Shown here in pieces: positions 17,661-52,800 of a stretch of 64,000 bases of DNA. Below the pieces are notes generated by a model, which saw only the letters and a program-made list of their open reading frames with translations, had not been told where the DNA came from and made no database searches. This DNA is from an uncultured Bacillota bacterium. GTDB lineage: Bacteria; Bacillota; Clostridia; Christensenellales; Borkfalkiaceae. The position numbers and the translations under genes were made by a program. How positions within the stretch are numbered: position 1 is the first letter of the stretch; each line of letters opens with the position of its first letter. The DNA lies in the NCBI GenBank assembly GCA_949300535.1, contig CASGEQ010000080.1, positions 1 through 64,000 of the forward strand, in the 5' to 3' direction.

Positions 17661-17667
17661 AATCGTA

Positions 17668-17696
17668 TTGACAGTGCGGGGCTGATATGATAAACT
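17668..17696 (+). promoter_or_regulatory. Candidate promoter for the sulfite-reductase/heme operon
   Basis: TTGACA, 17 nt, then TAAACT. Alternatively an extended -10, TGaTATGAT. Confidence 0.4.
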
Positions 17697-17712
17697 GAAA
17701 GGGAAGTTTTAT

Positions 17713-18615: not shown

Positions 18616-18651
18616 CCCGTTCGGGGCGGCGTTGCCGCCCCGTATCTGTTT

Positions 18652-21054: not shown

Positions 21055-22460
21055 GCCGCATATTTCTCGTCGGCGCAGGCTGCGGGGCGGGCGCGATCAG
21101 CGCAAGAGGACTTTCCCTGCTCCGCCGCTGCGACTGCGTCGTCTACGACGATCTGTTGGACGAAAGCATTCTCGGCGAGTGTCCGTCCGATTGCGAAAAA
21201 ATCTATGTCGGGAAGCGGAGCGGCGCGCATTCCGCGGAGCAGGGGGAGATCAATCGCATCCTCATGGCCTGTGCGGAAAAGCACCGTCTTGTCGTGCGCC
21301 TGAAAGGGGGCGATCCCTATGTGTTCGGGCGGGGCGGCGAAGAAGCGCTCGCGCTGAAAGATGCGGGAGTGCCTTTTGCGGAAATTCCCGCGTCCACGTC
21401 GGCGATCGCCGCTCCTGCGGCGGCGGGAATCCCCGTCACCCATCGCGGCGTTGCGCGTTCCTTTCATGTATATACAGGGCATACGCGCGACGGCGAAATG
21501 CCCGATTATGCGCTGATTGCCCGCACCGAGGGCACGCACATCTTTCTGATGGCGCGCTCGCGCTGCGGGGATATCTGTCGGGGGCTGATTGAAGGAGGTA
21601 TGTCCGAAGATACGCCCTGCGCGCTCGTCTCCGAGGCGGGCATGCCGGGGGAACGCGCCGTGCGCGGCACCCTTTCCGCCCTTCCCGAGTCGATCGCGGA
21701 CATGCCGTCGCCCGCCGTGCTTGTCGTGGGCAAGACCGCGGGCATGGATATCCGTTCCACCCTGCCCCTTGCGGGAGTGACGGTCGCCGTCGCGGGGACG
21801 GGGGAGTATGTCGGAAAGGTATGTACTCTTCTGAACGAGGAGGGGGCATTCGCGCGGCCGCTCGCCGTTGCGGAAGTCAAGGCGCTTGCCTTTGACGCAT
21901 TTTTTGAGCGGATGAAGGAGTTTTCCGTTCTCGCGTTCACGAGCTCCAACGGCGTGCGCATTTTCTTTGCGCGGGCGAAGGAGAAAAAGATCGATCACCG
22001 CGCGTTCGCGAAATACAAATTTGCGGTCGTGGGGAAGGGAACCGCGGAAACGCTCGCGGAATTCGGTTTTTACGCCGATATCATCCCGTCCGTGCATACG
22101 GCGGCGGGACTTGCGGAAAAACTCCGCGGGATGAAAGGCGTCGCCGTTCTCCGCGCCGAGGGCGGGAATCCCGCGCTTACGGAGATCGGCGAAGAATTTT
22201 TATTATACCGTCTTTATTACGATGATGAAAAATTGCGGCAATGCGTCTATGAAGCGGAGCGGGCGGATATCATTGCGTTTTCCTCCGCGCAGACCGTCCG
22301 CGGATTGCTGCCTCTTTTGTCCATGGAGCGCCGTCCGCCGCTCGTGTGTATCGGCGAAGAGACGGCGAAAGCCATTCGCGCGTTCGGATATACTCCCGTC
22401 ATCGCAAAAGACGCGTCGGCGGAATCGCTTGTAAAGGAGATTATATCATGCAGAGATTGA
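21051..22460 (+). CDS. cobA/hemD: Uroporphyrinogen-III C-methyltransferase fused to uroporphyrinogen-III synthase
   Basis: IFLVGAGCGAG...GGDPYVFGRGGEE (CobA/SUMT) followed by a HemD-like C-terminal half. ATGA overlap with hemC. Confidence 0.85.
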   Translation: MSRIFLVGAGCGAGAISARGLSLLRRCDCVVYDDLLDESILGECPSDCEKIYVGKRSGAHSAEQGEINRILMACAEKHRLVVRLKGGDPYVFGRGGEEALALKDAGVPFAEIPASTSAIAAPAAAGIPVTHRGVARSFHVYTGHTRDGEMPDYALIARTEGTHIFLMARSRCGDICRGLIEGGMSEDTPCALVSEAGMPGERAVRGTLSALPESIADMPSPAVLVVGKTAGMDIRSTLPLAGVTVAVAGTGEYVGKVCTLLNEEGAFARPLAVAEVKALAFDAFFERMKEFSVLAFTSSNGVRIFFARAKEKKIDHRAFAKYKFAVVGKGTAETLAEFGFYADIIPSVHTAAGLAEKLRGMKGVAVLRAEGGNPALTEIGEEFLLYRLYYDDEKLRQCVYEAERADIIAFSSAQTVRGLLPLLSMERRPPLVCIGEETAKAIRAFGYTPVIAKDASAESLVKEIISCRD

Positions 22461-24769: not shown

Positions 24770-24842
24770 AATTTTGTTCAGTTAAATGCGCCTTTCGATC
24801 AAACGGCGTGAAAAATAAAAACATTCAGGAGTGTTTACGGCT

Positions 24843-26483
24843 ATGTCAGAAAAGAAATCGGGTAAATCGGGGAAAGGCGGCGCGGCGCTCGTCGTTCTCG
24901 GAATTATATTGCTTGTACTCGCGATCGGGGCAGGCGTGCTGATCGCGTATCCCGGCAGTAAAGTAATGGAATTGCTGGAACAGTGGATTCCGCTGAATCT
25001 TACCAATTCGATCGTGCTTCCCGTGACGGCGGCGGTTCTTTCCGTTTTGGGTCTGATCGGGTTGATTACGGGTTTGTGTCTGCTTTCCCGTGCGAAGAAA
25101 TCTGCAGGCGCTGCGGAAGTTGCGGAAACTGCGCCCGCAGAGCCCGCCAAAGAGGAGCCTGAAGCGGCTGCCGAGGAGCCCGTCAAGGAAGAGCCCGAAG
25201 CGGTTGCCGAAGAACCTGTCAAAGAGGAGCCCGAGGCGGCTGCCGAAGAGCCCGTGAAAGAGGAGCCCGAAGCGGTTGCCGAAGAACCTGTCAAAGAGGA
25301 ACCCGAAGCAGCTTCCGAAGAACCTGTCAAAGAGGAGCCCGAAGCGGCTGCGGAAGAGCCCGTGAAAGAGGAACCCGAAGCAGTTGCCGAAGAACCTGAC
25401 AAAGAGGAGCCCGAAGCGGCTGCCGAAGAGCCCGCCAAAGAGGAGCCCGAAGCGGCTGCCGAAGAACCTGTCAAAGAGGAGCCCGAAGCGGTTGCCGAAG
25501 AATCTGTCAAAGAGGAGCCCGCAGAGAAAGCAGAGAAAGCGGATCGTTTTGCGGGGCTTCCCGTCGAAGTGGAGTATGTCGAGGGCGAGGTGCCCGAAGG
25601 ATCGGACGGATATCTGTTTACGCCGAGATACAAAAAGTCCTTTGTGGCGAAGATGGCGCTCGGGACGGACGCAGCCCGCACATATTATGCGCAGATCAAG
25701 CACAAGGCGCTTTCGTATGACCGAGTGCGCAGCCGCATTTCCTGGAATTTCGACCGTTTCAATCTGGGCAGACAGACTATACTCAAAATGACCGTGCGCG
25801 GCAAGACGCTTTGCTGTTATTTCGCGGCGGATCCCGCGCAGATGCCCGAAAAATACTATACGCGCGATGTGAGCGACGTAAAGAAATTTCAAAATACGCC
25901 CGTCATGCTGCCTGTCCGCAGCGCGAGAGCGGCGAAATATGCCTGTGAGATTCTGGAAGGGATCCTCAAAGCGGAGAACGCCGAATTTACGGGCGAGCAT
26001 ACCGAGGATGTAGAAACGGAAGTCCGCGCGCGCACGCTCGAACAGCTCATCGACGAGGGCGAGGTTATCGAACTTCTCAGCGAGGAGGATTATGAGGCGC
26101 GCAGTCAGCTGCGCGGAAGGCTCTTCCCCGGTCAGGCGCTCCGCACTTCCGTCAAGGCGGAAGAAGTGGACGATATCCTGACGGACGACGAGGCGAAGAT
26201 CCTTCTGGAAAACAAGAAGGTTTCGCGCATCGACCGTTCCCGCCGCGCGATCGTCAACGTCGATCAGCTTTCCGACGCTTTTGAAGACGGCGATACGGTC
26301 ACGCCTGATTGCATGAAGGAGAAGAAACTCATTCCCGAAAAGACGACTTACGTCAAGGTGCTTGCGCGCGGCACGCTCAACAAGCGCCTGATCGTGGAAG
26401 CAAACGATTTCTCGCTCGGCGCGGTCAAGATGATCACCGTCTTGGGCGGCGAACCCGTCAGACTGATCAATTTTGACGATTAA
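24843..26483 (+). CDS. Membrane-anchored protein with two N-terminal TM segments, 11 tandem EEPVKEEPEAAA repeats, and a C-terminal domain resembling ribosomal protein uL15
   Basis: AGGAG RBS. KVLARGTLNKRLIVEANDFSLGAVKMITVLGGEPVRL resembles the uL15 C-terminal signature. Confidence 0.5.
   Translation: MSEKKSGKSGKGGAALVVLGIILLVLAIGAGVLIAYPGSKVMELLEQWIPLNLTNSIVLPVTAAVLSVLGLIGLITGLCLLSRAKKSAGAAEVAETAPAEPAKEEPEAAAEEPVKEEPEAVAEEPVKEEPEAAAEEPVKEEPEAVAEEPVKEEPEAASEEPVKEEPEAAAEEPVKEEPEAVAEEPDKEEPEAAAEEPAKEEPEAAAEEPVKEEPEAVAEESVKEEPAEKAEKADRFAGLPVEVEYVEGEVPEGSDGYLFTPRYKKSFVAKMALGTDAARTYYAQIKHKALSYDRVRSRISWNFDRFNLGRQTILKMTVRGKTLCCYFAADPAQMPEKYYTRDVSDVKKFQNTPVMLPVRSARAAKYACEILEGILKAENAEFTGEHTEDVETEVRARTLEQLIDEGEVIELLSEEDYEARSQLRGRLFPGQALRTSVKAEEVDDILTDDEAKILLENKKVSRIDRSRRAIVNVDQLSDAFEDGDTVTPDCMKEKKLIPEKTTYVKVLARGTLNKRLIVEANDFSLGAVKMITVLGGEPVRLINFDD
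25139..25534 (+). repeat. 11 tandem 36-bp in-frame coding repeats
   Basis: Repeat unit gaagaRccYgtSaaagaggaRccSgaRgcRgYtgcc. Confidence 0.85.
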
Positions 26484-27269: not shown

Positions 27270-27388
27270 GTCCGTCGCGAAGGGTAATTACCCGAACTCA
27301 GATAAGAGCCGGCAGAGTTTTCCGGATGCCGACCAAAGAGGCGGCAATCTCGTCTTTTGGGTTCAGAATGAAATAAAAAACAGAATCA

Positions 27389-27424
27389 AATGAGTCCGAT
27401 TTTATCATCGGGCTCATTTTTTAT
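27389..27424 (+). terminator. Rho-independent terminator
   Basis: AATGAGTCCGATtttatcATCGGGCTCATTtttttatt. Confidence 0.8.
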
Positions 27425-27907
27425 TCCAAACATAATTTATATACGTTCTTTGCGATCGGGGAAAGTCATTCCCCGCCCGATCCGCCTGAAAAAATCGTAA
27501 TTTGCCGTTATTTGTCTTTCATAAACGCAATTTTTTTGGATTTTCTGCCGAAATTTTCCGTATTCAGCTAAACTTTCGCGTTGAAAAAACGTCAAGGCTT
27601 ACATCTTTAACAGCCGTTGGACTTTCGGGAGGAAGCGACTCTGCGGCTATGCTGCTTTTTTCAGGGACGGGAAGGGATGGATATCATCGGAATAATATCC
27701 ATTTCTATGTATAAATGCGGAATATTTTGCAGTTTTTTTCAGAAATCCGCCAATTGTCAAGGCAGACCGTTGCAAGGCGCGTTGATTGCGGTATATTATA
27801 AGGATAAAGCAGGAAATGCGGCGGCAGAAAAAGAAGCGCTTTTATAGCGGATAATCAGATCTTATATCTGTCATAACAAATAAATGTATAGAGGGCAAAA
27901 TTTTTAC

Positions 27908-27936
27908 TTGACAGCATTATTTCATTAGAGTATACT
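27908..27936 (+). promoter_or_regulatory. Sigma-A-type promoter in the ORF-free AT-rich region
   Basis: TTGACA, 17 nt, then TATACT. Confidence 0.45.
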
Positions 27937-28127
27937 TGCAACGGATTGCCGTGAAAAAAAAGTGAATGATGCGGAAATCCTGAAAAAAACAGGTGAAAAG
28001 CAAACAGTACGGATCCGCATGGAAAAGCGGCTTAAAGGCCTTTCCAAAGGCGCTTTGTGAAAAAGAAGGGAGAATGGTGAAAGTCTTCCGCTTTTATCCG
28101 CATTCGACATATTAAGCGGAGAAATAT

Positions 28128-28156
28128 TTGACTTTTACTATTCAAAATTATATAAT
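28128..28156 (+). promoter_or_regulatory. Sigma-A-type promoter
   Basis: TTGACT, 17 nt, then TATAAT. Lies about 150 nt upstream of the lipoprotein gene. Confidence 0.55.
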
Positions 28157-28303
28157 ATAGCATTGAAGTACAGATTTTTTCGGATCGGGACGGAAGGCAT
28201 ATTGCCGGCGTTTCACATTCCGATCATCTAATTTGCACAGATAAATCCGTAAAAATTTTTCAAGCGGGAATTTCACGGAAAATTCCCGGAAGGAAGTAAG
28301 TCT

Positions 28304-29521
28304 ATGAAGCTCAGGAAGCTGCTGATAGCCGCAATGACCGTCGTGTCCGCCGCATGCCTTGCGGCGGGGATTTCGGCTTGCTCGGATGCTTCCGCAGATT
28401 ACAGCCAGATGGGATATGTCAAGGTTGTCTTTCATCTGGAGGGCGGCAGATACCGAAACAGCACGAATGCCGTGACCAATTATTACGATTTTGAGGAAGG
28501 AACGCAGAATCTCATCTTTCCTCTCGGCGAATTTTCCGGTACGCAGCCGATCCGCGAGAATTACAAACTGGACGGCTGGTATCAGACGCGCGAAGAGGTC
28601 AACGGAACCGTCGTGTATGAAAACGCCTGGGACTTTTCTTCGGATACCGTTTCGGAAGAGGGAGTGGAACTGTACGCGTACTGGCGCCCCGACGTAAACT
28701 ATTCTTATAATGTTTGTTTCCGCGATGAGAACGGCGAAGTCGAGATTCTCGGCACATATAACGGAAAATCGGAGGGAGAACCTTTTTCTGACGATCTGAA
28801 TTATGCGGAGCTGAAAGCGCCCTCGGGATACACCTTTCTCGGGATATTCGTCGATGAAGACGGGAATCCCTGGGACGAGACTTTCGGGCATCCGGGCGGC
28901 GAGGAGGATACCGCCGTCAACGTATTCCCGGTATACGTCAAGGGGATTTATGCCGTGGTTCGTACGGCGGAAGAGCTGCAGAGCGCGCTTTCCTCGGGCA
29001 GGGGCGTCTATCTGATGAACGACATCGACATGGGCGGACAAGCTCTCGGAACGGGCGCAGGAACGAGCGTCAATTACCGTTCGGAATTCTGCGGCAACGG
29101 ATATACCGTTTCCAATTTCACGATTGCATATAACGCAAGCAATCTCGTGAATAACCCCGATCTCGACGAAGAGGGCAACCTGCTCTGCATCAGCCTGTTC
29201 GGGAACCTCGTGGGCGCTGCCGTAAAGGATGTTACGTTTGCGGATTATACATTGGCGCTGGATGCGAATTATTCGCGTATCAGACGAATCTATATCGCGC
29301 CTCTTTGTACGACGATGCGTGAGAGTACGGTCGAGAACGTGACGTTCGAGAACGGGGAATTTACTTGTCTGAAGCTCTCCGCGGGGTTTGCGGAAGAAAA
29401 TCTGCTCGTGCCGCAAAATAACGGGGCATATTTCGTCAATATCGACGACAGTTCAACGGTGATCGGTCTGTCGTGTTCTTATGTCAACGACATGCACGAA
29501 TATTTCGTGCAGTCCGAATAG
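28304..29521 (+). CDS. Lipoprotein with Listeria-Bacteroides-type repeat motifs (hypothetical)
   Basis: Lipobox GISACSD. YKLDGWYQT and GYTFLGIFVDEDG motifs. Confidence 0.5.
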   Translation: MKLRKLLIAAMTVVSAACLAAGISACSDASADYSQMGYVKVVFHLEGGRYRNSTNAVTNYYDFEEGTQNLIFPLGEFSGTQPIRENYKLDGWYQTREEVNGTVVYENAWDFSSDTVSEEGVELYAYWRPDVNYSYNVCFRDENGEVEILGTYNGKSEGEPFSDDLNYAELKAPSGYTFLGIFVDEDGNPWDETFGHPGGEEDTAVNVFPVYVKGIYAVVRTAEELQSALSSGRGVYLMNDIDMGGQALGTGAGTSVNYRSEFCGNGYTVSNFTIAYNASNLVNNPDLDEEGNLLCISLFGNLVGAAVKDVTFADYTLALDANYSRIRRIYIAPLCTTMRESTVENVTFENGEFTCLKLSAGFAEENLLVPQNNGAYFVNIDDSSTVIGLSCSYVNDMHEYFVQSE

Positions 29522-29734
29522 CGTACTGCTAAAGTACGGAAAACAACGCCTGAGGAATCGGGCGGAAAAACACCGCAAGGGGGCCCCCTTGCGTATAGGG
29601 AATTCTTATGTATTCCCTATAAAAATATTTATCTGTTCTGCGAACAGCAGAGGATGGACATAGGCATTTATAAATTGCGCCTCAGGTCAACGGCTATACG
29701 GCGCAGCAAAAATTATAGAGAAGGAGAAATTGCG

Positions 29735-32395
29735 ATGAAATCAAAGGCTGTGAAATTGACTGCGGGCGTCCTTGCGGTGAGCATGGTTTTAGGCTTTGCA
29801 GGATGCGGCGGCGGGGAAACGGTTACGTATTACGACAACGAGAACGACCCTCTCGTGTTTTCCACGCTGGAAGTAGATCAGGTATTCAATCCGTTTTTCT
29901 ACACTTCGGGGACAGACGGTGAAGTGGTCGGACTTACTCAGTTGAGCATGCTCACGAACGACAGCAAGGGGAACCCCTCTTACGGAGAAGACGAGGCATG
30001 TATCGTACTCGACTACGAGGAGAAGACGACGGGAACCGGCGAAAATCAGAAGACCGAATATAAATTCGTTCTCAAGAACAACGTTCGCTTCTCGGATGGT
30101 ACATATCTTTCGATGAAGGACGTGCTCTTCAACTTCTACGTTTATCTCGACCCCGTTTATACCGGTTCGAGCACCATTTATTCGACGGATATCGTCGGTT
30201 TGAAGGAATACCGCACGCAGTCCTCTTCGGAAGCCGAGCAGGACAGCTTCATGCAGCGTTTTGAAAACGAAGCGCGCAGCCGTATCGACAATCTCATCAC
30301 GGCGTCCAACGATCTCCTCGATCAGGCAGGCGTCGTGGGCTTTGCCGACGCAGAGGCGTTCAAACAGGCGCTGGAAGGGTATCAGGAAGAGCATCCGGAT
30401 GCGGCGTTTTCCCATCTCGTGGAAGACTTCGGGCTGGTTGCAGGATATACCGATGGGGACGGCGTCGAGCACAGCGGCTTCTTTATGGAAGAACTCGAGA
30501 GCGACTGGTCTGCGGCGCTCAATTCCTATGAAGACACCTCGTTTTCTGATGAAAGCGGGGAGGTTTATAAGCCGTTTACCACGGATGTGGAAGTCTTCCT
30601 CTATAATGAGGGCTATGTTTCCTGGAGCAGACGCGACGGCAGACTTCACTCTTCCATCATGAGCGATGCCGATCTCGACGCAGGGAAACTCAAGGAATAT
30701 ACGAAAGAGGATGCGATCTCGCTCGTCTATAACGACAAGATCCCCAACGCAATCGTGGAAGTCGTCAGTTATTGGCAGACGGCGGTCACGCTCAGCACCT
30801 ACCTTACAAACGCTGCGCTCGGCGAATACTATCAGACGCATGAGCGTACTTACAGCAATATCAGCGGCATTCAGTTTGCGAACCGCACGCAGTCCGTTAC
30901 CGTCAACGACGTTACATACGGAGTCCCCACATACGAGGAAGGCTCGAATAACACGCACGTCATCTCCGGCAACGAGGTGCTCTCCATTACGATCAATAAG
31001 GTCGACCCCAAGGCGATCTGGAACTTTGCGATTCCCGTGGCGCCTATGAACTATTATTCCGACGCTGAGCACATCGAGGCATTCGATTATGAAAGCAACT
31101 TCGGCGTGGAATACGGGTCTCAGGATTTTTATAACAATGTCGTAAACGGCAGCGATAAGATCGGCGTTCCCATGGGCGCAGGGCCTTATGCGGCAAGCAA
31201 GTCCTCGGGCGGCATCGAAAATATCACGGCGGGCGACTTCTACGACGTCGGCGTCATCTACTTCGAGCGCAACCCTTATTTCATCATGGGCCCCGCGAAG
31301 ATCAAGAAGGTCCGTTATCAGGTCGTTTCTTCTTCCGGTATGCTCAATTCCCTCTACACCGGGGCGATCGACTTTATTTCTCCCAACGCAAAACCCGAAA
31401 CGATCAACGAGCTCAATGATCGCAGAGATCAGGGCATCGGCAACGATTCGATTACGACGATGGGTTACGGCTATATCGGCATCAATGCGGGTAAAGTTCC
31501 CGCTCTTAAAGTGCGTCAGGCAATCATGCACGCGATCGATATTCAGGAGTGCGTGAACTATTATGGCACGGAAGCGCAGCCGATTTATCGTTCCATGTCG
31601 CGCGAAAGCTGGGCTTATCCCGAGGACGCGACCCCTTATTATCCTTACATCGGCGATCCCGTGCCCGAAAATCTGTCCGTCGTCAATCCCGATTACAGGG
31701 ATTATGTGACGAGACTCGGAAAACGCGCAGGAGACATGCTCACGGAAGAGGAGCAGGAAGACTTCATCCGTCAGCTCGTTGAAGACGCAGGTTACAGGCT
31801 CGGCGCCAACGATGTCTATACGAACGGCACCGATACGCTCCGCATCGACTTTACGATCGCGGGCGAAGAGACCGACCACCCCGCGTACAGCGCGCTCAAC
31901 CATGCGCGTGAGATTCTCAACCGCTGCGGATTCCAGATTACGGTCAAGACGGACGCCAATGCGCTCACCAAACTTACGACGGGCGATCTCTCCGTATGGG
32001 CGGCGGCATGGAGTTCCACAATCGACCCCGATATGTATCAGGTCTATCATAAGGATTCTACCGCAACTTCCACGCTCAACTGGGGTTATCGTCAGATCAA
32101 ACTCAATGCGGGCGGAAAGTACAACACGGAATATGCGCTTTTGGATCAGCTTTCGCTCCTCATCGAGCAGGCGCGCGAGACGACCGTTCAGAGCACGCGT
32201 AAGGACCTTTATTCGCAGGCGCTCGACATCGTCATGCAGATGGCGATCGAGCTTCCTACCTACCAGAGAACGGATCTGTTCGCCTATAATGCAAACAAGA
32301 TCGACGAAACGACCTTTACCCCCAAAGCAGACCGTTCGGCGTTCAAGGGTCTGACGAGCGATCTTTATAACGTATCTCTGATCGTAGAAAGATAA
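29735..32395 (+). CDS. ABC transporter substrate-binding lipoprotein, family 5 (OppA/DppA-like), unusually large at 886 aa
   Basis: AGGAG RBS. Lipobox LGFAGCGGG. SBP_bac_5-like core with a long insertion. Confidence 0.75.
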   Translation: MKSKAVKLTAGVLAVSMVLGFAGCGGGETVTYYDNENDPLVFSTLEVDQVFNPFFYTSGTDGEVVGLTQLSMLTNDSKGNPSYGEDEACIVLDYEEKTTGTGENQKTEYKFVLKNNVRFSDGTYLSMKDVLFNFYVYLDPVYTGSSTIYSTDIVGLKEYRTQSSSEAEQDSFMQRFENEARSRIDNLITASNDLLDQAGVVGFADAEAFKQALEGYQEEHPDAAFSHLVEDFGLVAGYTDGDGVEHSGFFMEELESDWSAALNSYEDTSFSDESGEVYKPFTTDVEVFLYNEGYVSWSRRDGRLHSSIMSDADLDAGKLKEYTKEDAISLVYNDKIPNAIVEVVSYWQTAVTLSTYLTNAALGEYYQTHERTYSNISGIQFANRTQSVTVNDVTYGVPTYEEGSNNTHVISGNEVLSITINKVDPKAIWNFAIPVAPMNYYSDAEHIEAFDYESNFGVEYGSQDFYNNVVNGSDKIGVPMGAGPYAASKSSGGIENITAGDFYDVGVIYFERNPYFIMGPAKIKKVRYQVVSSSGMLNSLYTGAIDFISPNAKPETINELNDRRDQGIGNDSITTMGYGYIGINAGKVPALKVRQAIMHAIDIQECVNYYGTEAQPIYRSMSRESWAYPEDATPYYPYIGDPVPENLSVVNPDYRDYVTRLGKRAGDMLTEEEQEDFIRQLVEDAGYRLGANDVYTNGTDTLRIDFTIAGEETDHPAYSALNHAREILNRCGFQITVKTDANALTKLTTGDLSVWAAAWSSTIDPDMYQVYHKDSTATSTLNWGYRQIKLNAGGKYNTEYALLDQLSLLIEQARETTVQSTRKDLYSQALDIVMQMAIELPTYQRTDLFAYNANKIDETTFTPKADRSAFKGLTSDLYNVSLIVER

Positions 32396-32437
32396 AAACC
32401 TGCCGCGCAGCGCGGCAGACCATAAATCGGGTACATT

Positions 32438-33445
32438 ATGCTCAAATACATCATCAAAAGACTTCTGATCTCCATCGTCATTCTTCTGGGCGTTTCCATC
32501 ATCATATATACGATGGTGCGCCTCATGCCGAACGACTATGTGGACAATAAATTCAAGACGCAGCTCGCGACGGGAACGATCGACATGGAAGATATCCTGC
32601 AATTTAAAAAATTGTACGGTATCGGCGATAACTCGTTCTTCGGTATTTTGTCGGGGTATTTCCAATGGCTCGGGAATCTTCTGAAAGGGGATCTCGGGAC
32701 TTCCTTCAAGTACCAGAAGGATGTGGGCGAAGTGATCAGTCAGAACATGTGGATTTCCTTTGCGATCGCTATCGTCGCCACCATTCTCCAATTTCTCATC
32801 GCGATCCCGCTCGGCATTTCGAGCGCTACGCATCAGTATTCCGTCCGTGACTATGCGGTCACCGTATTTACGATGATCGGCATATCGCTGCCGACATACT
32901 TTTTTGCGGCGATCGTCATCAAGATATTTGCAGTCGATCTTGGCATTCTTCCGCCGAACGGCCTTATCTATCCGAGCAAGAGCTATGCGGAATCGTTTAT
33001 GGGGCAGATGGAGCGGTTCGGCGACATCATCGTACACCTGATTCTGCCGATTTTCGTCAGCGTTATACTTTCCATCGGCGGACTCATGCGCTATACGAGA
33101 ACGAACACGCTCGAAGTGCTCGGCGCGGATTATATCCGCACCGCCCGTGCAAAAGGGCTTTCCGAGCGTAAGGTCATTTACCAGCACGCATTCCGCAATA
33201 CGCTGATTCCGCTCGCCACGCTGCTTGCAGGGATCCTGCCGTCGCTCTTCGGCGGTATGATGATCACCGAGGAAGTGTTCGGTATCGACGGAATCGGGCG
33301 GCTCGCCTATCAGGCGCTGCGGGAGGGCGACGTCCCGTTCGTCATGGGATACAACATGTTCCTTGCGGTTCTGACGGTCATAGGCACATTGCTGTCGGAT
33401 ATCATGTATGCGTTGGTCGATCCGCGCGTGAAGCTTGGGAAGTAG
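32438..33445 (+). CDS. Oligopeptide/dipeptide ABC permease (OppB/DppB family)
   Basis: Six TM segments and an EAA-like motif region. Confidence 0.85.
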   Translation: MLKYIIKRLLISIVILLGVSIIIYTMVRLMPNDYVDNKFKTQLATGTIDMEDILQFKKLYGIGDNSFFGILSGYFQWLGNLLKGDLGTSFKYQKDVGEVISQNMWISFAIAIVATILQFLIAIPLGISSATHQYSVRDYAVTVFTMIGISLPTYFFAAIVIKIFAVDLGILPPNGLIYPSKSYAESFMGQMERFGDIIVHLILPIFVSVILSIGGLMRYTRTNTLEVLGADYIRTARAKGLSERKVIYQHAFRNTLIPLATLLAGILPSLFGGMMITEEVFGIDGIGRLAYQALREGDVPFVMGYNMFLAVLTVIGTLLSDIMYALVDPRVKLGK

Positions 33446-33454
33446 GAGAAGAAG

Positions 33455-34591
33455 ATGAAAGAACACGAGATCAAAGAACGCACCGAAGAGGCCGCCGCGC
33501 TTGACGCCGAAACGGAACTTGCGGAAACGGACGCGATCCCCGAAGTCGCCGAAAAGGCGAACGAAGATATTCCCGAAGCGGTAGCCGAAACGGAGGAGGA
33601 AGAGGAAGAAGAAACGTATAAGGAAATGAGCCCGCTCAGGCTTGTCATGCGCAGATTCTTCCGTTCCAAACTTTCCATCGTCGGGCTTGTCATGATCGTA
33701 TTCCTGTTTGTATTCGCTTTTCTCGGTCCGGTCATGTATACGAGATGGGGCGAAGAAACGGTAGACAGAACGCCCGTTACGAACACATTTGATTATACAT
33801 ACGATTATTTCGATGAGAACAATGAAGAGATCACCGTCGTGGAAGAGCTTCTGATTCAGGACGATAAGAACAGTTATGCGGATCCTTCCGCGGATCATTT
33901 GCTCGGAACGGACGACCAGGGAATGGACGTCCTGGTTAGACTGATGTACGGCGGCAGAATTTCGCTTATGATCGGGTTTATCGTAGTCATTCTCGAGACG
34001 GTCATCGGCATTATCCTGGGCGGCCTGGCGGGTTATTTCGGCGGCTGGGTCGATCAGGTCATCATGCGTATCGTGGATATTTTCAACTGTATCCCGACGC
34101 TGCCCATTCTCCTGATTGCATCGGCAATGATCGATTCGTGGCAATTGGCGCCGGACCAGCGAATATACGTTCTGATGGTGATCATCACGATCTTCAGCTG
34201 GAGCGGCGTTGCGCGAATGGTGCGCGGGCAGATTCTGTCCCTGCGCGAACAGGAGTACATCACCGCAACGGAGGTCATGGGACTTCCGACGTGGCGCAAG
34301 ATCTTCAAACACTTGATTCCGAACGTCATGCCGCAGCTCATCGTTTCGATGACGCTCGGATTGGGCAGCGTAATTCTCTATGAATCTACGCTGAGCTATC
34401 TCGGACTGGGCGTTCAGCTGCCGCAGGCGGCATGGGGAACGATGATCGCGACGGCAAACGATCCTGTGGTGCTCAGTTATCACGTCAATATGTGGCTGCC
34501 GGCAGGTATCATGATCGTCATAGCAGTCCTCGGGTTCAACTTCGTGGGCGACGGTTTGCGCGACGCGATGGATCCCAAGGCACGGAAATAA
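33455..34591 (+). CDS. Oligopeptide/dipeptide ABC permease (OppC/DppC family) with an acidic N-terminal extension
   Basis: OppC-type TMD. N-terminal region of about 70 aa rich in Glu. Confidence 0.8.
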   Translation: MKEHEIKERTEEAAALDAETELAETDAIPEVAEKANEDIPEAVAETEEEEEEETYKEMSPLRLVMRRFFRSKLSIVGLVMIVFLFVFAFLGPVMYTRWGEETVDRTPVTNTFDYTYDYFDENNEEITVVEELLIQDDKNSYADPSADHLLGTDDQGMDVLVRLMYGGRISLMIGFIVVILETVIGIILGGLAGYFGGWVDQVIMRIVDIFNCIPTLPILLIASAMIDSWQLAPDQRIYVLMVIITIFSWSGVARMVRGQILSLREQEYITATEVMGLPTWRKIFKHLIPNVMPQLIVSMTLGLGSVILYESTLSYLGLGVQLPQAAWGTMIATANDPVVLSYHVNMWLPAGIMIVIAVLGFNFVGDGLRDAMDPKARK

Positions 34592-34607
34592 TAAAGAGCA
34601 GATTGCG

Positions 34608-35942
34608 ATGAAAAGAAAGAAAAATACAAATTATGCGTCGCTCAGTGAGAGCCGGAGGATCATCCGCCATAACGTCAGGCAGATGCGTTATTACGAGAAA
34701 CTCAAGCGTAAGAAGCGCAGTCCCGAAGAGTATACCGCGACGATGCGCGATCCGAACAACATCATCGAGATCGACGGGCTTAAGACGTGCTTTTTTACGG
34801 ACAACGGAACGGTAATGTCCGTGAACGGCGTCTCTTTCGATATTCCGAAAAATAAGATCGTCGGCGTTGTGGGAGAATCGGGCTGCGGGAAAAGCGTGAC
34901 CTCGCTCTCCATCATGCAGCTTGTGCAGGCGCCGCAGGGTCAGATCGTGGAGGGTTCCATCCGTTTCGCCGCGCAGGATTATAAGCTGGACGAATCGGGC
35001 AAGCCCATTCCGATTTGGGAATATGTCGAAAAAGACGGAAAAAAAGTCATCAAGACCGTTCCCGTGCTGGACAAAAAGGGCAATCCTGTCCTCGATAAAG
35101 AGGGCAGACCCGTTATGAAGAACGTTCAGGCGAAGGATGAAAACGGACTGCCTCTTTTTGAACTGGAAGAAAAGACATACGATATCGTAAAAATGCCCGC
35201 AAAGGAGCTTTACCGCATCCGCGGGAAAGAGATATCGATGATCTTTCAGGAGCCGATGACGAGCCTGAACCCCGTGTTTACCGTCGGATATCAGCTTGAC
35301 GAGGTTTCCTTTCTCCATACGCCGGGGATTTCCAAAAAGGAAGCGCGCGAGTACAGCATCGAGATGCTGAAAAAAGTCGGCATTTCCATGCCGGAACATA
35401 CTTACGAAAGCTATCCGCATGAACTTTCCGGCGGAATGCGCCAGCGCGTCATGATCGCAATGGCGATCGCGGGACTTCCGAAACTCATTATAGCCGACGA
35501 GCCGACCACGGCGCTCGACGTGACGATTCAGGCGCAGATTCTGGAACTGCTGCGCGATCTGCAGCGCAAACAGGGCTGTTCCATCATGCTGATCACGCAC
35601 GATCTGGGCGTAATCGCCGAGATGGCGGACGAAGTCGTCGTCATGTACGCAGGCAAGGTGATCGAAAAGGGTACGGTGCAGGATATTTTCAATCATCCCC
35701 TGCATCCGTACACGGTGGGGTTGCAGAAGAGCAAGCCTTTGCTCGATTCCGATTCCAACGAACCGCTCTATTCCATTCCGGGTCAGGTCCCCAATCCCAT
35801 CAATCTGCCCGATTGCTGTTATTTCAGGAATCGCTGCAACCGCTGTACCGAAGCGTGCAAGGGGCCTTATCCCGAAATGATACGCGTAAGCGATACGCAT
35901 TATGTTTCCTGCTATCTCTATCAAAACGGAAAAGGAGACTGA
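34608..35942 (+). CDS. Oligopeptide ABC ATPase (OppD-like) with an N-terminal extension and an insertion of about 80 aa after Walker A
   Basis: GESGCGKS Walker A; LSGGMRQR signature; C-terminal oligopeptide-ATPase domain. Confidence 0.85.
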
Positions 35943-35943
35943 C

Positions 35944-37134
35944 ATGGAAAACCAAAAAATAGAAAACAAAACCGCGGAGATCCCGGAAGACGAGATTCTG
36001 CGCGTGGAGCATCTGAAAAAGTATTTTCCCATCGAGAAGAGCCTGCTCGGGAAAGTGACGACGAGCCTTCGGGCGGTGGACGACGTGAGCTTTTCGGTAA
36101 AACGGGGCACGACGATCGGGATCGTAGGGGAATCGGGCTGCGGGAAAACCACTCTCGGGCGTACGATTCTCAAATTATACGATCCGGACGGCGGGAAGAT
36201 CTACTTCAACGGCGAAGATATCACCGATTTAAAGAGCAAACAGATGCTGAAATACAGGACGGATATCCAGCTGATTTTCCAGGATCCTTATTCGAGCCTG
36301 CCGCCCAGAATGACGGTCGGCAGCATCATTTCCGAAGCCGTCCGCGTACATAACATCGTACCCAAAAATCAGCTGTACGAATACGTTCTCGACATCATGA
36401 AAAAATGCGGGTTGCAGCCGCAGTACTATGACCGTTATCCCCATGAGTTTTCAGGCGGTCAGCGGCAGAGAATCTGCATTGCGCGCGCTTTGGCGGTAAA
36501 GCCCAAGCTCGTCATCTGCGACGAGCCCGTTTCCGCGCTGGACGTATCCATTCAGGCGCAGATCATCAATCTTCTGAAAGATCTGCAAAAGAAGATCGGG
36601 CTTACTTATGTGTTCATTTCGCACGACCTGTCCGTCGTCAAGTACATCACGGAACAGATTCTCGTCATGTATCTCGGCAAAGTCATGGAGTTGGGCGAAA
36701 CGGACGAAATATTCGAAAACCCGCTGCATCCTTATACGAAGGCTTTGTTTTCTGCGGTACCCGTTCCGAATCCGGACGTCAAGATGCAGCGTATCATCCT
36801 CGAAGGGGACATTCCTTCCCCGGCGAATCCCCCCGCGGGCTGCAAATTTCATACGCGCTGCCCGGAGTGCATGAACGTCTGCAAGTTCATGGAACCGCAA
36901 TACGTCGAAGCCGTACCCGGACATCACGTGGCTTGTCATCTGTATAATCGGCAGGTCATGGAGCATCTATCCGATTACGATGCGGAGTACGAGCGTCTCG
37001 AAGCGGAACGCATTGCGCAGCTGCAGGAAAAGCAGCAGAAAAAAGAGCATGGAAGAAGAAAAGCAGAAGCCGCAGAAAGATCTGACGGGAACGCCCCCGA
37101 AGGCGAAGAAAAAAAAGAAACGGAAATTCGTTGA
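35944..37134 (+). CDS. Oligopeptide ABC ATPase (OppF-like) with a Lys/Glu-rich C-terminal tail
   Basis: AAGGAG RBS; GESGCGKTT; FSGGQRQR. Confidence 0.85.
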   Translation: MENQKIENKTAEIPEDEILRVEHLKKYFPIEKSLLGKVTTSLRAVDDVSFSVKRGTTIGIVGESGCGKTTLGRTILKLYDPDGGKIYFNGEDITDLKSKQMLKYRTDIQLIFQDPYSSLPPRMTVGSIISEAVRVHNIVPKNQLYEYVLDIMKKCGLQPQYYDRYPHEFSGGQRQRICIARALAVKPKLVICDEPVSALDVSIQAQIINLLKDLQKKIGLTYVFISHDLSVVKYITEQILVMYLGKVMELGETDEIFENPLHPYTKALFSAVPVPNPDVKMQRIILEGDIPSPANPPAGCKFHTRCPECMNVCKFMEPQYVEAVPGHHVACHLYNRQVMEHLSDYDAEYERLEAERIAQLQEKQQKKEHGRRKAEAAERSDGNAPEGEEKKETEIR

Positions 37135-37341
37135 CGACGGCCACACGGTATACAGCATGGAAGGACTCAATCCGGCTCCGCGCGTAAAGCAATCGGACAA
37201 AACCGGGCTCACGCATAAGGAGCGCCGCGCGGCGGTCCGCGCAGCGCTTGCCGTGTATTTGCCGAGAGTTCTTCTCATCATTGCCTGTTTTGTCATTGCA
37301 GGCCTGCTGATTTATTTGTGGCTGAGTTAATAAGGAGCACT

Positions 37342-47374: not shown

Positions 47375-49765
47375 ATGAAAAAAATCAAGAACATTCTCAA
47401 AGGTGGTGCGGCAGCGATTCTTTCCGCTGCAATGGCAATCTCGGTAGCGGCGTGCACGACTCCGACCGATGACTCGGGTAAGGATCCGGATACCCCGATC
47501 GTTACGCCGACCCCTACCATTACGGTTGAAATAAGCGGGCTCGGTAACGGTCAGCTGAAAAAGGGCGAAAAGCTCCAGCTCACCGCAACCGTGACCGGTT
47601 CGGACAACACTGCCGTGAATTGGTCTGTATCCGATCCGACTCTTGCAAAGATCAGCGCGAGCGGCGAACTTGAAATCATCGGCGACGTACAGTACAACAA
47701 GACGGTACAGGTAACGGCGACGTCCCAGGCAGACCCGAGCGTAAGCGTTACCAGAACGATTACCGTCATAGCTCCTACCGCAGAAGGGCAGGTCGGCCTG
47801 CTGACGGGGGACATGATCGAAGCGCTCGGCGCGGATAACCTTACCGTTACGGGTGTTCTTACCGACTATTATGTCGATTATAACGCTTCCTTCAACAGCA
47901 CGACCCATAAATACAACATGGAAGTCAAGATGGATGACGGCGCATGGTACGGCAGATGGCAGAACGATCCGAACGACCCCATGTCGGGCGACGCGGTCTG
48001 GACGGAGAGCCTTTATCTGCGCGGCGAGGCCGTAACCGACGGACACGAACTCAAAACGACATACATCGACAAAAACAACCAGGTGAGCGATAAGGTCATC
48101 ACCGATTATATGAGTCTGCCCGTTCTTTGGGAGTCTCAGCACCTTTACAATCACATCGGTCAGCTCAACGTCAATGAGTTTACGCAAGTCTCTGCGGATG
48201 ATGCGACGCAATATGTTTATTACGTCGATGATACCGATGAAACTTCGCTCTATCTGATGACGTATCTCTCTTACAGCCTTACTCCTCTGCTTTCCGATAC
48301 GCTCGACCGTATCATCTTCGTGCTCAACGAGGAAGGTACCGCGATCGAAAAGCTGGTCGGACAGACGGAGACTCTCCTTTACGGTGAAAATACGGAGGAC
48401 GATCCCGACGCGATGAGCTATACGACGATCGAACTTACCTTCTCGGATATCGGCGAGACGGAAGTGCCGATGCCGACGCCTTATGAAGCGCCCGAGCACG
48501 CAGATCTGCTGAGCGCAGCGCTTGAGAAGATGCAGACGAGCCGCAACTATCAGTTCACGACGGCCGATACGACGACGTATGCGCCTTCCGGGGATGGGGG
48601 AGATTATACCATCGAGTCCGCAGGCGGCGCTGTGGCGTCCAGCCTTGCGGCGACGCTTGCAACGGAAAACGAACCTGCGGAATATCCCGCAATCAAGGAT
48701 TATACGAGCGAGACGGGAACGGCAGGCCTCAGAGGCTGGGTCACGGAAGAGGGCATTCTGTTTGCAGAGACGACGCAATATACCGCGTCGATGGACGGAA
48801 AAAACTATCGTGTCGAATTCACGGGTTACAAGCCGAACGACGGTTATTATGAAGAATTTGCTTTCGACAGCGATCTCCAGGTATTCTACGGCACCCGCCG
48901 CGTCAACGGGGATATGTTCGACGCAATGCCCGGATTTGATTTCTCCGCAAACGTATTTGAATTTATAGGCGCAGGGCAGAACAATACCTACGTATTCCAG
49001 CTTCGTTCCGATGCGATCACGCGCGACATTGCAATGGAGGTTTCGGCGCACAGCAACGCAAAGAGCGCGTCGTCGTCTTCTTCTTATCCGCTCCAGATCA
49101 CGGTCGATGCAAACGGCAACCTCGTTTCCACGCGGTTCCCGTATTCGCTGGTCAGCGGTACCTATATCGGCTACTGCACCACGACGTATTCCGGTTTCGG
49201 CACGACGGAAATTGTGGAGAACGACGCATTCAGAGTATTTGACGGATATATCGAACGCGGAACGATGGATAGCTGGGATCAGTATTCTGTCCGTTACTAT
49301 TATCCCAACCACAGCACGATCGGCGGCGCGACCGCGATCGATGCGGCTACGCTGTTTACGACGATTTACGACGGCGCCGTTCCTGCTCCGACCGTATTTA
49401 TGAATGTCTTCGGAGACGCGATTTCCGGGCCGTTCTTCAATTGGTATGACAATGAAGACGAAGAGGGGAACGTCGAGTATGCAGACTACGTCACGCTCAC
49501 GGTTTTTGTTGCGGAAGACGCGCTTGACGAAAATTCCCATCTGCTTGACGCTTCTTCCTGGGTAACCAAAATTGAGAATTCGATGACCGCTGCGGGTTAT
49601 CAAAGATCTGCGGCAAATACGGATCTTGACAATGTCGGCGTCGGAACGAACTCTTGGGATCTTTCCTACACCAACGGCACGCTGATCGTACATTTTGAAT
49701 CGAACAACACGCGTACATTCTGGATTGAGATTTACAATGTCGGCGATTGGACTTTGAACGGCTGA
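47375..49765 (+). CDS. Large lipoprotein with a Big_2-like domain (hypothetical); paralog of 45030-47333
   Basis: AAGGAG RBS. Lipobox SVAACTT. Conserved GxLTxDMIxxL and NYxFxxxxT motifs shared with the previous gene. Confidence 0.55.
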   Translation: MKKIKNILKGGAAAILSAAMAISVAACTTPTDDSGKDPDTPIVTPTPTITVEISGLGNGQLKKGEKLQLTATVTGSDNTAVNWSVSDPTLAKISASGELEIIGDVQYNKTVQVTATSQADPSVSVTRTITVIAPTAEGQVGLLTGDMIEALGADNLTVTGVLTDYYVDYNASFNSTTHKYNMEVKMDDGAWYGRWQNDPNDPMSGDAVWTESLYLRGEAVTDGHELKTTYIDKNNQVSDKVITDYMSLPVLWESQHLYNHIGQLNVNEFTQVSADDATQYVYYVDDTDETSLYLMTYLSYSLTPLLSDTLDRIIFVLNEEGTAIEKLVGQTETLLYGENTEDDPDAMSYTTIELTFSDIGETEVPMPTPYEAPEHADLLSAALEKMQTSRNYQFTTADTTTYAPSGDGGDYTIESAGGAVASSLAATLATENEPAEYPAIKDYTSETGTAGLRGWVTEEGILFAETTQYTASMDGKNYRVEFTGYKPNDGYYEEFAFDSDLQVFYGTRRVNGDMFDAMPGFDFSANVFEFIGAGQNNTYVFQLRSDAITRDIAMEVSAHSNAKSASSSSSYPLQITVDANGNLVSTRFPYSLVSGTYIGYCTTTYSGFGTTEIVENDAFRVFDGYIERGTMDSWDQYSVRYYYPNHSTIGGATAIDAATLFTTIYDGAVPAPTVFMNVFGDAISGPFFNWYDNEDEEGNVEYADYVTLTVFVAEDALDENSHLLDASSWVTKIENSMTAAGYQRSAANTDLDNVGVGTNSWDLSYTNGTLIVHFESNNTRTFWIEIYNVGDWTLNG

Positions 49766-49803: not shown

Positions 49804-52800
49804 ATGAAAATTCGCGGGAAAGCAGCCTTTTGCCTGATCGGGCTTATGGGCATCAGTATCCTCGCGGCGGCGTGTTCGGGCGGAGGGGATTCCCCTGCGC
49901 CCGGGCCCGGACCGTCAGACGGACCGGACGATCCCGGAATTGAAATTGTCGTCAGCGCGATGGAAGAGGCAGTCGCCATCAAGGATTACCAGGTAGCGAC
50001 GTATGACTATACGTCGCTCTTTTCCATATCGCGGGACGGGCAGAACGTGGAGGTTCTGGATTCCTATATCGACAGTTCGGCCGTATCGGAAACGGCGGGA
50101 ACTTATCCGGTCACCTGCACTTACGAGGAAAAAACAGCCGAGGCAGAAGTCACGGTCGAAGCGTCTGTATGCGAAATCCAACTGTCCGCACAGGAAGTGA
50201 CCGTCCGTCAGGACGAGTGGGACAGTTTTGATTATCTGTCTCTCTTCACTGCGACGTTGGACGGGGAACCGCTTGAGATCACGGAAGACATGATCGATTC
50301 CGACGTGCAGGAGGAGGCCGGCGACTATACCTTTACGGTTTCCTTCTACAAAACGAGCGCAACGCTCACCGTACATGTCACGGACGTACATACGATCGAA
50401 TGCATTTTTTCGTACCGCACGTTCGAGATCGAGGAAAGCGCCGTGCAGGATTATGACTATACTTCTCTGTTTTCGCTCTACATTGACGGCGCCGCCGTCC
50501 GCGTGACGGAAGACATGATCGATACATCGGCGCTTGCGGAAGCCGAGGCGGGGCAGGAATACCCGGTTGTCTTCCGCTATTCCTCCGAGCTCGGCACGTC
50601 CGAAGCGACTGCGGCGGTGAAAGTTGTGGCGGATCGCGAGATCGTCCTCACGGGGCGCTCCCTGGTCATTTACCCGAATTCCGATTATATCGATCTCACT
50701 CAACTGTTCGAGATCAGACACGGGGACGAAACCGTGCCCGTGACGAGCGATATGATCACGGGCAGCATCAACTATTCCGAAGCGGGCGAAAACATCATTA
50801 CGCTCACCTACGGCGGAAAGCAATGTACGGCGACGGTGGAAGTGCGCGTCGGCGCGGTCATAGAATTCGCTTCCTCCGATGTCATTTCCGTTGCGCGCGG
50901 GACCGAGCAGAATACTTACGATTTTGCGAAGGATTTTGTCGTGACGATCAACGGGATACGGTTTACGGATATTCCGACCAGCTATTTTACGGGATTGGAT
51001 GAAGTGAACTTCGGGGTTGCGGGCGATTATGACGTTACGCTCACGATTCCGTACTGCTATACCGCCTATAATCAATGGACGGGCGTAACGACGTTCGAAT
51101 ACGTATCCGAAACGATCACTTATCGTGTGGAAGAAAACACCTGCACCGTGCGCTTTGTGGAAGACCGCGTCACGTTGCCGCAGGGAACGGACGAGTACGA
51201 TGTTCTGAGCAATCTTAACGTATGGGTAAACGGCGTTCGGATGGCGCTTACGGAAAATCCGGATTGGGCGGATCCCATCACGGTATATGCCAGAATCGTA
51301 AGCGGAGTGGACTTCCGGGAAAAGGGCGAGCAGGAGATCGTGATTCAGGTATATCCCGGCGGGCCGGACGGAGAGCCGGTTGAAGTGCGGTATCCGCTCA
51401 TCATTGAGTCGGATATTCAGATCTCCGTGAATAACGCGGCGGTGTTCAGCGGCGAAACGCTGTATACCCGCGACCTGTTCACGATCACATCCGGCGGCGA
51501 AGACATCCCCGTGACCAGCGAGATGGTTTCCGGCAAAGTCGATACCTTTACGCCCGGCGTCTATACGGTTACGATCGAATATGAAGGGATTGTCAGGGAA
51601 GCGCAGGTCGTCGTGTTCGACAATGCCATGAAAGGCACCTACCGCACCACGCTTACGACGATCCCCGTCATCGAGACGGACAGCGACGATTCCGAAGATC
51701 TCGGCTGGGGCTCGTATTCCGCAGACACCTATGCGGAAAGCGTTTCCGTTTCGGAAACGACGCGCCTCGGGGCGCTCGTCATCGGGGAAGACGGTACGAT
51801 TACGCACGGCGGAAGCAACGTCGAAATCATTTCCGGTATCGACGCGCACACAATGCTCGTCCGTCTCAATTCTTACGTATATACTCTCTATTATAACGAC
51901 GGAATCATCGTGCTGGATCCCGATAATTCCATCAAAATGCTTTTCAGCGATGTGAAGCGCCCGATGGTATACTTCAACAACGCCGAATGGCAGATCGATA
52001 CGAGCGTGACAATCAACAGTTCCGCCACGCACGTTCTGACCCTGAATTATGTATCGTACAGCATCGATACGTTCCGCATCACGAAACGGGATACCGCAGA
52101 GACGATGTGGTATGCGCTTATGGTGGAACTCGCCGAAAAGACGAGCGCGGATACTTATTATACCGTCACCTGGGGCGAAGCGGAATATGCCGACGATTTC
52201 GTGCAGGAGGCGGGGGCAGACTCTTCGCTTACCTTCCGCGGCAACACGTACGCGTTCACAATGGAGAGCGCTTCCGTGGGAAGAATCCGCCAAACTTTCG
52301 GAGAACTGAAATATGCGAATATGACATTCTCCGGCACGGTCGACGGAAAAGACGCGCTTTTGAACGTCACTTCGGCAGAGGGCTTTGAACTGATCGTGGA
52401 CGGCGTCCGCGTGTTCTCCGTTTCCGGCATGGCAGTCGGGAGTCTCGCGAACGGCGGAGTGGATTACGATGCGGATGTCGTGTTCCTTTATGGGGTAAAG
52501 GACAGCGATTACGGGACGTATTCCTACCGTTTTGTGCTCGATACGGAAAACAGAACGTTTACGATCGACGAGCGCGACCGCTATTACGGCGTGTATGAGA
52601 CGGAGGATATGTATCTCTTCCTCGACGGATACGGTCACGGGCTCTTCAACTTCAACACAACGTACAACACGACGACGCGGCTGAATTACACGGTGCGCGG
52701 CCAGGAAGTGACCGTACGCTTTGTCGATCCTGCTCCCAGTTTCACGCACGGCAGTTATGCGACGTTCTATATTGCAGATCTGCTCAACATACTTACGGTA

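Follow-up and report, generated by a model that had tools for sequence, protein, structure and literature searches.

In lactic acid bacteria, proteins are cut outside the cell by a surface proteinase and the oligopeptides are imported by Opp (PMC7783315, PMC3587842). The window analyzed here, a stretch of 64,000 nucleotides (nt) from an uncultured Bacillota bacterium (contig CASGEQ010000080.1 of assembly GCA_949300535.1), carries a locus in which an importer and a protease of these types are encoded together. Six of its genes, for a solute-binding protein (SBP), two permeases and two ATPases of an Opp-type transporter and for a giant S8 protease, had been described in an earlier note as a putative module for feeding on extracellular protein, and open reading frame (ORF) listing and translation placed all six on the + strand as that note had them (29735-45033). 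The limits given to the unit were too narrow, as the unk405 lipoprotein, a small membrane protein and four downstream lipoproteins had been overlooked; the full locus comprises 12 genes over ~32 kb (28304-60642, + strand) and extends past 29735-45033 on both sides. We consider it fairly probable that the locus, with 29735-45033 as its core, is a conserved surface unit for protein capture, cleavage and peptide import. Its best reading is as a physically linked, elaborated variant of the proteinase/Opp system of lactic acid bacteria.

The likeness to that system (PrtP, PrtM, Opp and intracellular peptidases) lies in an S8A protease with a PA insertion, an Fn3-like stalk, a helical region and a spacer before the anchor, and in an Opp-type ATP-binding cassette (ABC) importer whose SBP is a lipoprotein. 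In lactic acid bacteria the proteinase genes lie apart from the opp genes, whereas here they are linked and conserved as one locus. The unit differs further in having a transmembrane anchor in place of the LPXTG/sortase type, no PrtM-like gene, a ~750-amino-acid (aa) BspA-type leucine-rich repeat (LRR) array, an SBP larger by ~290 aa, a small membrane protein and five extra lipoproteins.

The streptococcal C5a peptidases ScpA/ScpB and SpyCEP, its best solved homologues, align with the window protease over S8, PA and Fn3 (E 8e-69) and have the same catalytic residues. The identity is 30-40% at most and covers the head only, and unlike the window protease these enzymes are LPXTG-anchored, have no LRR array, are not linked to opp genes and act on single host factors. 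The importer shares its five components, OppC_N, oligo_HPY, the four-Cys spacing and the cluster-C SBP fold with E. coli DppABCDF, M. tuberculosis OppABCD and B. subtilis AppA; it departs from Opp/Dpp importers in a helical SBP insertion, an acidic OppC N-terminus, a basic OppD N-terminus, a charged OppF tail and an additional small protein, tail-anchored and encoded by a gene that overlaps oppF. In joining lipoproteins and a hydrolase at the surface to an importer of its own, the locus also recalls, by analogy only, the polysaccharide utilisation loci of Bacteroidota. There is no homology to these, the cell plan is Gram-positive with an ABC transporter instead of SusC/D, and the presumed substrate is protein rather than glycan.

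Linkage of the importer and protease genes

A scan of species-representative genomes confirmed at least 592 relatives of the SBP (592 of the first 600 pattern hits), and a tblastn census was made on 80 loci (given by L numbers where needed). The protease gene adjoined the opp genes in 65 of the 68 judgeable loci, lying upstream on the same strand in 16 and downstream in 49 (47 and a further 2 with its N-terminus at a contig end); the contigs of the other 12 loci were too short to be judged. The co-location of protease and opp genes in related genomes, when tested in this way, held across differing flanks and two gene orders.

On contigs whose SBPs were 58-75% identical to that of the window, the same gene order was found in six lineages with unrelated flanks: a lipoprotein of ~380-416 aa, the SBP, OppB, OppC, OppD, OppF, a small ORF and a protease of 2480-2600 aa. 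With the search begun instead at the protease gene, the cassette was present at 59% (L093), 49% (L177) and 42% (L095) protease identity. No opp genes were found near P0256, a 50%-identical protease without the LRR array, or near protease relatives at ≤38% identity (L096-L101). The loci with the protease upstream kept protease and opp genes with d767, d796 and d1282, three of the downstream lipoproteins, not nearby, and the opp linkage is therefore independent of those proteins.

The protease was not found in three loci with enough sequence (L025, L072 and L081). A recombinase-like gene follows the small ORF in L072. In L025, from a metagenome-assembled genome (MAG) labelled Bacilli, the small ORF is followed by a gene for a 1478-aa Flg_new protein (17156-21592), of which the first 238 residues are like the protease N-terminus and the remainder is like the fourth downstream lipoprotein, d2303; from the sequence, this fusion seems to have arisen by an internal deletion in which the body of the protease and three lipoprotein genes were lost. 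Carriers were labelled Clostridia, Christensenellaceae or Eubacteriales, and some Bacilli or Mollicutes, though the latter labels may be unreliable. The parts are annotated publicly as 'hypothetical protein', 'ABC transporter substrate-binding protein', 'S8 family serine peptidase' and 'leucine-rich repeat protein', and no description of the locus was found in the literature.

Structure of the protease and importer

The protease gene (37342-45033, +) begins with an ATG at 37342, has an AAGGAG ribosome-binding site upstream and encodes 2563 aa. Segment-wise domain scans mapped Peptidase_S8 to residues 216-686 with PA inserted at 501-565, Fn3_5 to 722-843, Big_2 domains to ~1187-1231 and 1322-1377 and an LRR_5 array to ~1419-2162, bearing out the S8 protease with PA, Big_2 and BspA-LRR parts that had been proposed. 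Its motifs DSG, HGTH and GTSMASP are of the subfamily S8A type. Residues 205-884 matched C5a peptidase, SpyCEP and cell-envelope proteinase A (E 8e-69 to 1e-61), and PA lay within S8 in 13 of 13 homologues and was followed by Fn3_5 in 12 of the 13, so that the likeness to cell-envelope proteinases holds at the sequence level. Conservation of the catalytic triad had been set beforehand as a test, which the protease passed: D225, H297, N393 and S626 were kept in 63 of 64 aligned homologues, the exception being L025, in which the protease has been replaced. Against the NCBIfam SGO_0316/SGO_0317 model, a subfamily of LPXTG serine peptidases, the score was 243 bits vs a cut-off of 1400.

The LRR_5 match (E 1e-126) fell into 7 stretches, the tandem repetition by which BspA-type LRR proteins are recognized, and the LRR part resembled the streptococcal adhesin HupY/LrrG (NCBIfam E 1e-36). 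Unlike in those proteins, the array is fused here behind a full cell-envelope-type protease. It is followed by a helical region to which no domain was assigned, a Pro/Gly-rich spacer, a transmembrane helix and KKKK. At the other end, a lipoprotein signal peptide is followed by ~190 aa before S8 that are probably a propeptide. Most homologues start with a clear lipobox signal peptide, and Inhibitor_I9 gave a weak match in 1 of 13 family members (E 0.005) and in a few database homologues. The protease had been described as anchored in the membrane at both ends; the C-terminal transmembrane helix was confirmed, and the N-terminal 'anchor' is instead a lipoprotein-type signal peptide ahead of the probable propeptide. 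A hydrophobic helix with basic residues ends 19 of the 20 complete homologues, and LPXTG, the mark of sortase anchoring, was absent from all 20. No rotamase domain was found in any of the 12 products of the locus, which thus has no adjacent PrtM/PrsA-type maturase of the lactococcal kind. In one locus with the protease upstream (L177, 10001-17470), the protease is split into a 1537-aa ORF running from S8 to the LRR and a 934-aa LRR ORF; this split could be real or an artefact of assembly or a frameshift.

By its parts, the importer is a complete Opp/Dpp-type system. The SBP gene (29735-32395, +) is preceded by a GAAGGAG ribosome-binding site and encodes an 886-aa family-5 lipoprotein with the lipobox LGFAGC in its signal peptide. 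SBP_bac_5 matched in two pieces (Pfam, E 4.8e-27), which places the protein in cluster C with the SBPs of Opp/Dpp (PepT family) importers. When the SBP was aligned with a Bacillus anthracis family-5 binding protein (PDB 5u4o), only three islands matched, and SBP residues 162-508 corresponded to residues 160-215 of the 5u4o chain, leaving ~290 extra residues in the SBP. In an AlphaFold2 model built on 64 sequences (predicted local distance difference test (pLDDT) 87, predicted template modelling score (pTM) 0.81), the insertion forms a block at ~165-375 that is helical for the most part. The alignment and model agree with the earlier note, which had given the insertion as roughly 300 aa. Used alone as the query, the insertion retrieved 33 proteins among 1.84 billion representatives, the longer of which matched at the same position, and the insertion domain is therefore private to this SBP family. 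More than 3800 SBP homologues were obtained, and the best 120 were all 860-901 aa long. In a Foldseek search the closest fold to the model was nonapeptide-bound B. subtilis AppA (1xoc; E 1e-21, template modelling (TM) score 0.80 on the target), followed by NikZ, OppA, DppA and L. lactis OppA.

Hairpins rich in guanine and cytosine (GC) were seen after the unk405 gene (29574-29593) and after the SBP gene (32397-32421, +), the latter within the 42-nt SBP-oppB spacer; both are palindromic and lack a T-run on the + strand. Judging from sequence, the hairpin at 32397-32421 is possibly an mRNA stabiliser or a partial terminator, and the two could govern how much SBP mRNA there is relative to that of the translocator.

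The permeases are of the OppB type (335 aa; 32438-33445, +; BPD_transp_1 E 3e-33, BPD_transp_1_N) and the OppC type (378 aa; 33455-34591, +; BPD_transp_1 E 6e-35), the second with the OppC_N helix at residues 59-96 (E 1e-10), which is the pair found in Opp/Dpp importers. OppB was 65-83% identical between loci. Its length was 434-556 aa in several lineages (L011, L012, L072, L081 and others) vs 335 aa in the window, and from these differences OppB has apparently acquired lineage-specific insertions. The acidic N-terminal extension noted for OppC was borne out as a 57-aa stretch ahead of OppC_N; it was present in all homologues inspected but is of low complexity and variable.

The ATPases are of the OppD type (444 aa; 34608-35942, +), with a split ABC_tran match, and the OppF type (396 aa; 35944-37134, +; ABC_tran E 4e-34), whose probable start at 35944 is the one called in sister contigs. 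Both have oligo_HPY (E 5e-17 and 3e-20), and OppF matched the NCBIfam dipeptide/OppF models (E 1e-124). The spacing C-x5-C-x6-C-x17-C was read in both C-termini and is that of the [4Fe-4S] ligands of E. coli DppD (C284/290/297/315; PMC12136057) and DppF. The two proteins thus have the predicted features of Opp/Dpp ATPases, oligo_HPY and four Cys ligands for a [4Fe-4S] cluster. The charged C-terminal tail reported for OppF was confirmed in the sequence. In OppD, the reported N-terminal extension was found as ~45 basic residues that are well conserved across the family; the insertion of about 80 aa after Walker A did not stand at that size, as the special part is ~55 aa long and occurs in 5 of 72 homologues. 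The peculiarities of the SBP, OppC and OppF and the OppD N-terminal extension are family-wide, and the long OppD insertion is lineage-specific.

OppD also aligned to the NCBIfam Mycoplasma OppD model in two pieces, which implies that the model, too, has a large insertion behind Walker A, at the site of the one in OppD. The bit scores were far below the cut-offs for the mollicute OppD/OppF models (MMSYN1_0167, 328 vs 740; MMSYN1_0168, 306 vs 800). Enlarged OppA lipoproteins are known in mycoplasmas; no match of the SBP to a mollicute OppA model was obtained.

Accessory genes and surroundings of the locus

The unk405 gene (28304-29521, +) encodes a 405-aa lipoprotein with a signal peptide, the lipobox GISAC, a weak Flg_new repeat (Pfam E 0.005) and an unassigned C-terminal domain. 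It was always directly upstream of the SBP gene (72 complete copies, 80 genome loci) in both gene orders, and it is the counterpart in position of the ~380-416-aa lipoprotein of the sister contigs. In the gap of 200 nt described between oppF and the protease gene lies a conserved small gene (37049-37330, +). It overlaps oppF at the 3' end of the latter, in a different frame, and encodes a tail-anchored membrane protein of ~93 aa, its start being uncertain. The protein has a Lys-rich N-terminus, the motifs YVDDGHTVYxM and KERxAxIxAA and a C-terminal transmembrane helix ending in WL(K/S), and it matched no Pfam or NCBIfam family. Of the 66 genome loci in which the gene was found, 58 encode the DDGxT motif, which makes 59 of 67 sequences with the window included; whichever the gene order, the small gene follows oppF. 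The poly-A run near 37108 raised the possibility of a frameshift that would fuse OppF to the small ORF; this was rejected, since the two-frame overlap is kept in lineages without the run. Because unk405 and the small gene travel with the transporter genes, both products are probably accessory transporter parts.

About 880 nt of non-coding DNA with lower GC content (27420-28300) lie ahead of the locus, behind a terminator-like hairpin (27388-27419). Overall, scans for promoters and terminators gave no more than chance would, and only two promoter-like sites before unk405 (27908-27936 and 28128-28156), each scoring 11/12, were worth noting. Rfam gave no known riboswitch or leader in the whole window or in the 5' region (27420-28300), and a search for CodY boxes returned chance-level matches, none of them in the upstream regions.

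Four lipoprotein genes follow the protease gene at spacings of -4 to 78 nt, and from the SBP gene to d2303 all intergenic distances are -86 to 78 nt. The start of d767 (767 aa; 45030-47333, +) overlaps the protease stop by 4 nt, and its model (pLDDT 90) has Fn3/Ig domains and two beta-rich domains with a weak LprG/LolA-like resemblance. The next gene, d796 (796 aa; 47375-49765, +), gave a weak Big_2 match, d1282 (1282 aa; 49804-53652, +) has Big_3 repeats, and d2303 (2303 aa; 53731-60642, +), the last gene of the co-oriented block, has Flg_new (Listeria-Bacteroides) repeats. A relative of d767 follows the protease in L093, L173, L174 and L175. Relatives were found at the same positions for d796 in these four loci (29-40% identity), for d1282 in L173, L174 and L175 (32-41% identity) and for d2303 in L173 and L174. 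PDB sequence searches with unk405, d796, d1282 and d2303 gave nothing useful. A lipobox or a transmembrane anchor was seen in every extracytoplasmic product of the locus, so that all of these parts are placed at the membrane surface. These products are also strongly acidic (Asp+Glu 14-15%, Lys+Arg 4-8%).

A 1564-aa antisense ORF across the SBP, OppB and OppC genes (29789-34483, - strand) was rejected as a gene, since rare TTA, CTA and TCA codons keep its frame open. Together these three make up 2.3 per 1000 codons in the locus, and their near absence, which leaves few antisense stop codons, also accounts for long - strand ORFs opposite real genes at 47351-49693, 49915-52749 and 57325-60042. 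Ahead of the locus, a ~550-aa ORF (24831-26483, +) has ribosomal protein L15 (Ribosomal_L27A) at residues 474-541 as its only domain and a long charged N-terminal region; it sits after haem-biosynthesis genes, outside a ribosomal operon, and is 546, 570 or 304 aa long in sister contigs. Just past the locus, a 288-aa ORF (60884-61750, +) with the C-terminal part of a GH43 domain and a partial CBM35 may be a gene remnant. The GC content was 38% at window positions 1-2000 vs 52-60% elsewhere.

Interpretation of the locus

The intact protease, the full importer, the tethering to the membrane and the near-universal linkage across hundreds of species are together best fitted by a module for capturing and cutting proteins and importing the peptides. 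The giant subtilase would be secreted as a zymogen and probably shed its N-terminal propeptide, and the C-terminal transmembrane helix would keep it on the cell. The LRR array may target the substrate or a host surface; with the Ig-like domains and perhaps the co-encoded lipoproteins, it would hold protein substrates or a protein-rich surface while the S8/PA/Fn3 head cuts the substrate into oligopeptides. The enlarged, lipid-anchored SBP would then catch these peptides near the membrane and pass them to OppBCDF for ATP-driven import, with the small tail-anchored protein and the upstream lipoprotein as probable accessory parts of the transporter. Peptide would accordingly be the importer substrate, the parts may be in physical contact, and the purpose would be nutritional; the protein targets proposed for the protease and the roles suggested for the six unannotated proteins are predictions of the same kind.

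Several observations weigh against this reading. The SBP shares just 10-12% identity with solved peptide binders, and nickel, opine and EDTA binders score almost as high against its model, so the substrate is not fixed by homology. The closest solved relatives of the protease, ScpA and SpyCEP, are specific virulence proteases and not feeding enzymes. Domain scans of the products found no intracellular peptidase and no PrtM-like maturase in the locus. The protease and lipoproteins occur without opp genes upstream in L175, and the opp genes are kept without the protease in L072 and L081, which shows that the two halves are separable. Five of the 12 products have no recognisable function, and the role of the locus may go beyond feeding or be a different one. 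The MAGs that carry it come from human, mouse, rabbit, ruminant and chicken gut; a carrier in culture was not identified.

That two unrelated surface systems adjoin by chance would agree with the separate proteinase and opp genes of lactic acid bacteria; this reading is refuted by the synteny census, and we give it next to no credence. We think it rather unlikely that the protein is an adhesin-protease directed at a host or partner, in which the LRR array would bind a surface, the protease would cleave specific targets (immune factors, mucus proteins or the surface proteins of other cells) in the manner of ScpA and SpyCEP, and Opp would mainly sense or salvage the released peptides rather than feed the cell. 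The solved matches of the protease and the HupY/LrrG likeness of its LRR part suit such a role, as do the adhesin-type Ig, Flg_new and Big repeats in the co-encoded proteins and the animal or human gut origin of all carriers. Near-universal linkage to the importer across rabbit, ruminant, chicken, mouse and human gut lineages is better suited to housekeeping, and domain scans found no regulator or peptide-sensor gene in the locus.

An improbable alternative is the utilisation of glycoproteins or glycans, with Opp importing glycopeptides or oligosaccharides, the lipoproteins serving as glycan binders or novel hydrolases and the protease opening glycoproteins such as mucin. Family-5 SBPs include sugar binders, this one lies at a great distance from characterised peptide binders (E 8e-4 for its best sequence match in the PDB) and has a family-specific insertion, and five lipoproteins are of unknown function. 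The sole recognisable enzyme is nevertheless the protease: no glycoside hydrolase, carbohydrate-binding module or sugar-kinase domain was found in the 12 genes by domain scans, the d767 model gave only Fn3/Ig and LprG/LolA-like folds, and peptide binders lead the structural matches of the SBP. Still less probable, in our estimate, is envelope maturation, in which the protease would process surface proteins, either the co-encoded giant lipoproteins or others, and Opp would recycle the fragments or cell-wall peptides. It would account for the tight, co-oriented packing of the protease gene with those of four giant lipoproteins and for the fusion of a protease N-terminus to a d2303-like protein in L025; an LRR-bearing enzyme of 2500 aa would be an odd design for self-processing, and the loci with the protease upstream keep it with opp in the absence of d767, d796 and d1282 nearby. 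These last three alternatives each explain the pairing with a full importer less well than does a unit for protein capture, cleavage and peptide import.

A bolder form of the protein-feeding reading is that the 12 genes are one physically coupled Gram-positive 'protein utilisation locus' and the main nitrogen route of a large uncultured group of gut Clostridia, including Christensenellales-labelled genomes. The LRR/Ig lipoproteins would capture protein, the tethered subtilase would cut it, and a purpose-built Opp, with its enlarged SBP, small tail-anchored subunit and charged cytoplasmic extensions, would take up the products directly. We put this forward tentatively, as possible rather than probable.

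The conserved linkage is genetic evidence for a coupling of proteinase and Opp that has been known in lactic acid bacteria from physiology alone. The locus also provides a setting for six unannotated families (the small membrane protein, unk405, d767, d796, d1282 and d2303) and for the new insertion domain of the SBP. Abundant and for the most part uncultured, the carriers are gut Clostridia of humans, rodents, rabbits, ruminants and poultry, whose physiology is largely unknown; for these bacteria, the tie between protease and importer offers a concrete hypothesis for nitrogen supply, the source of which could be dietary protein, host protein or other microbes.

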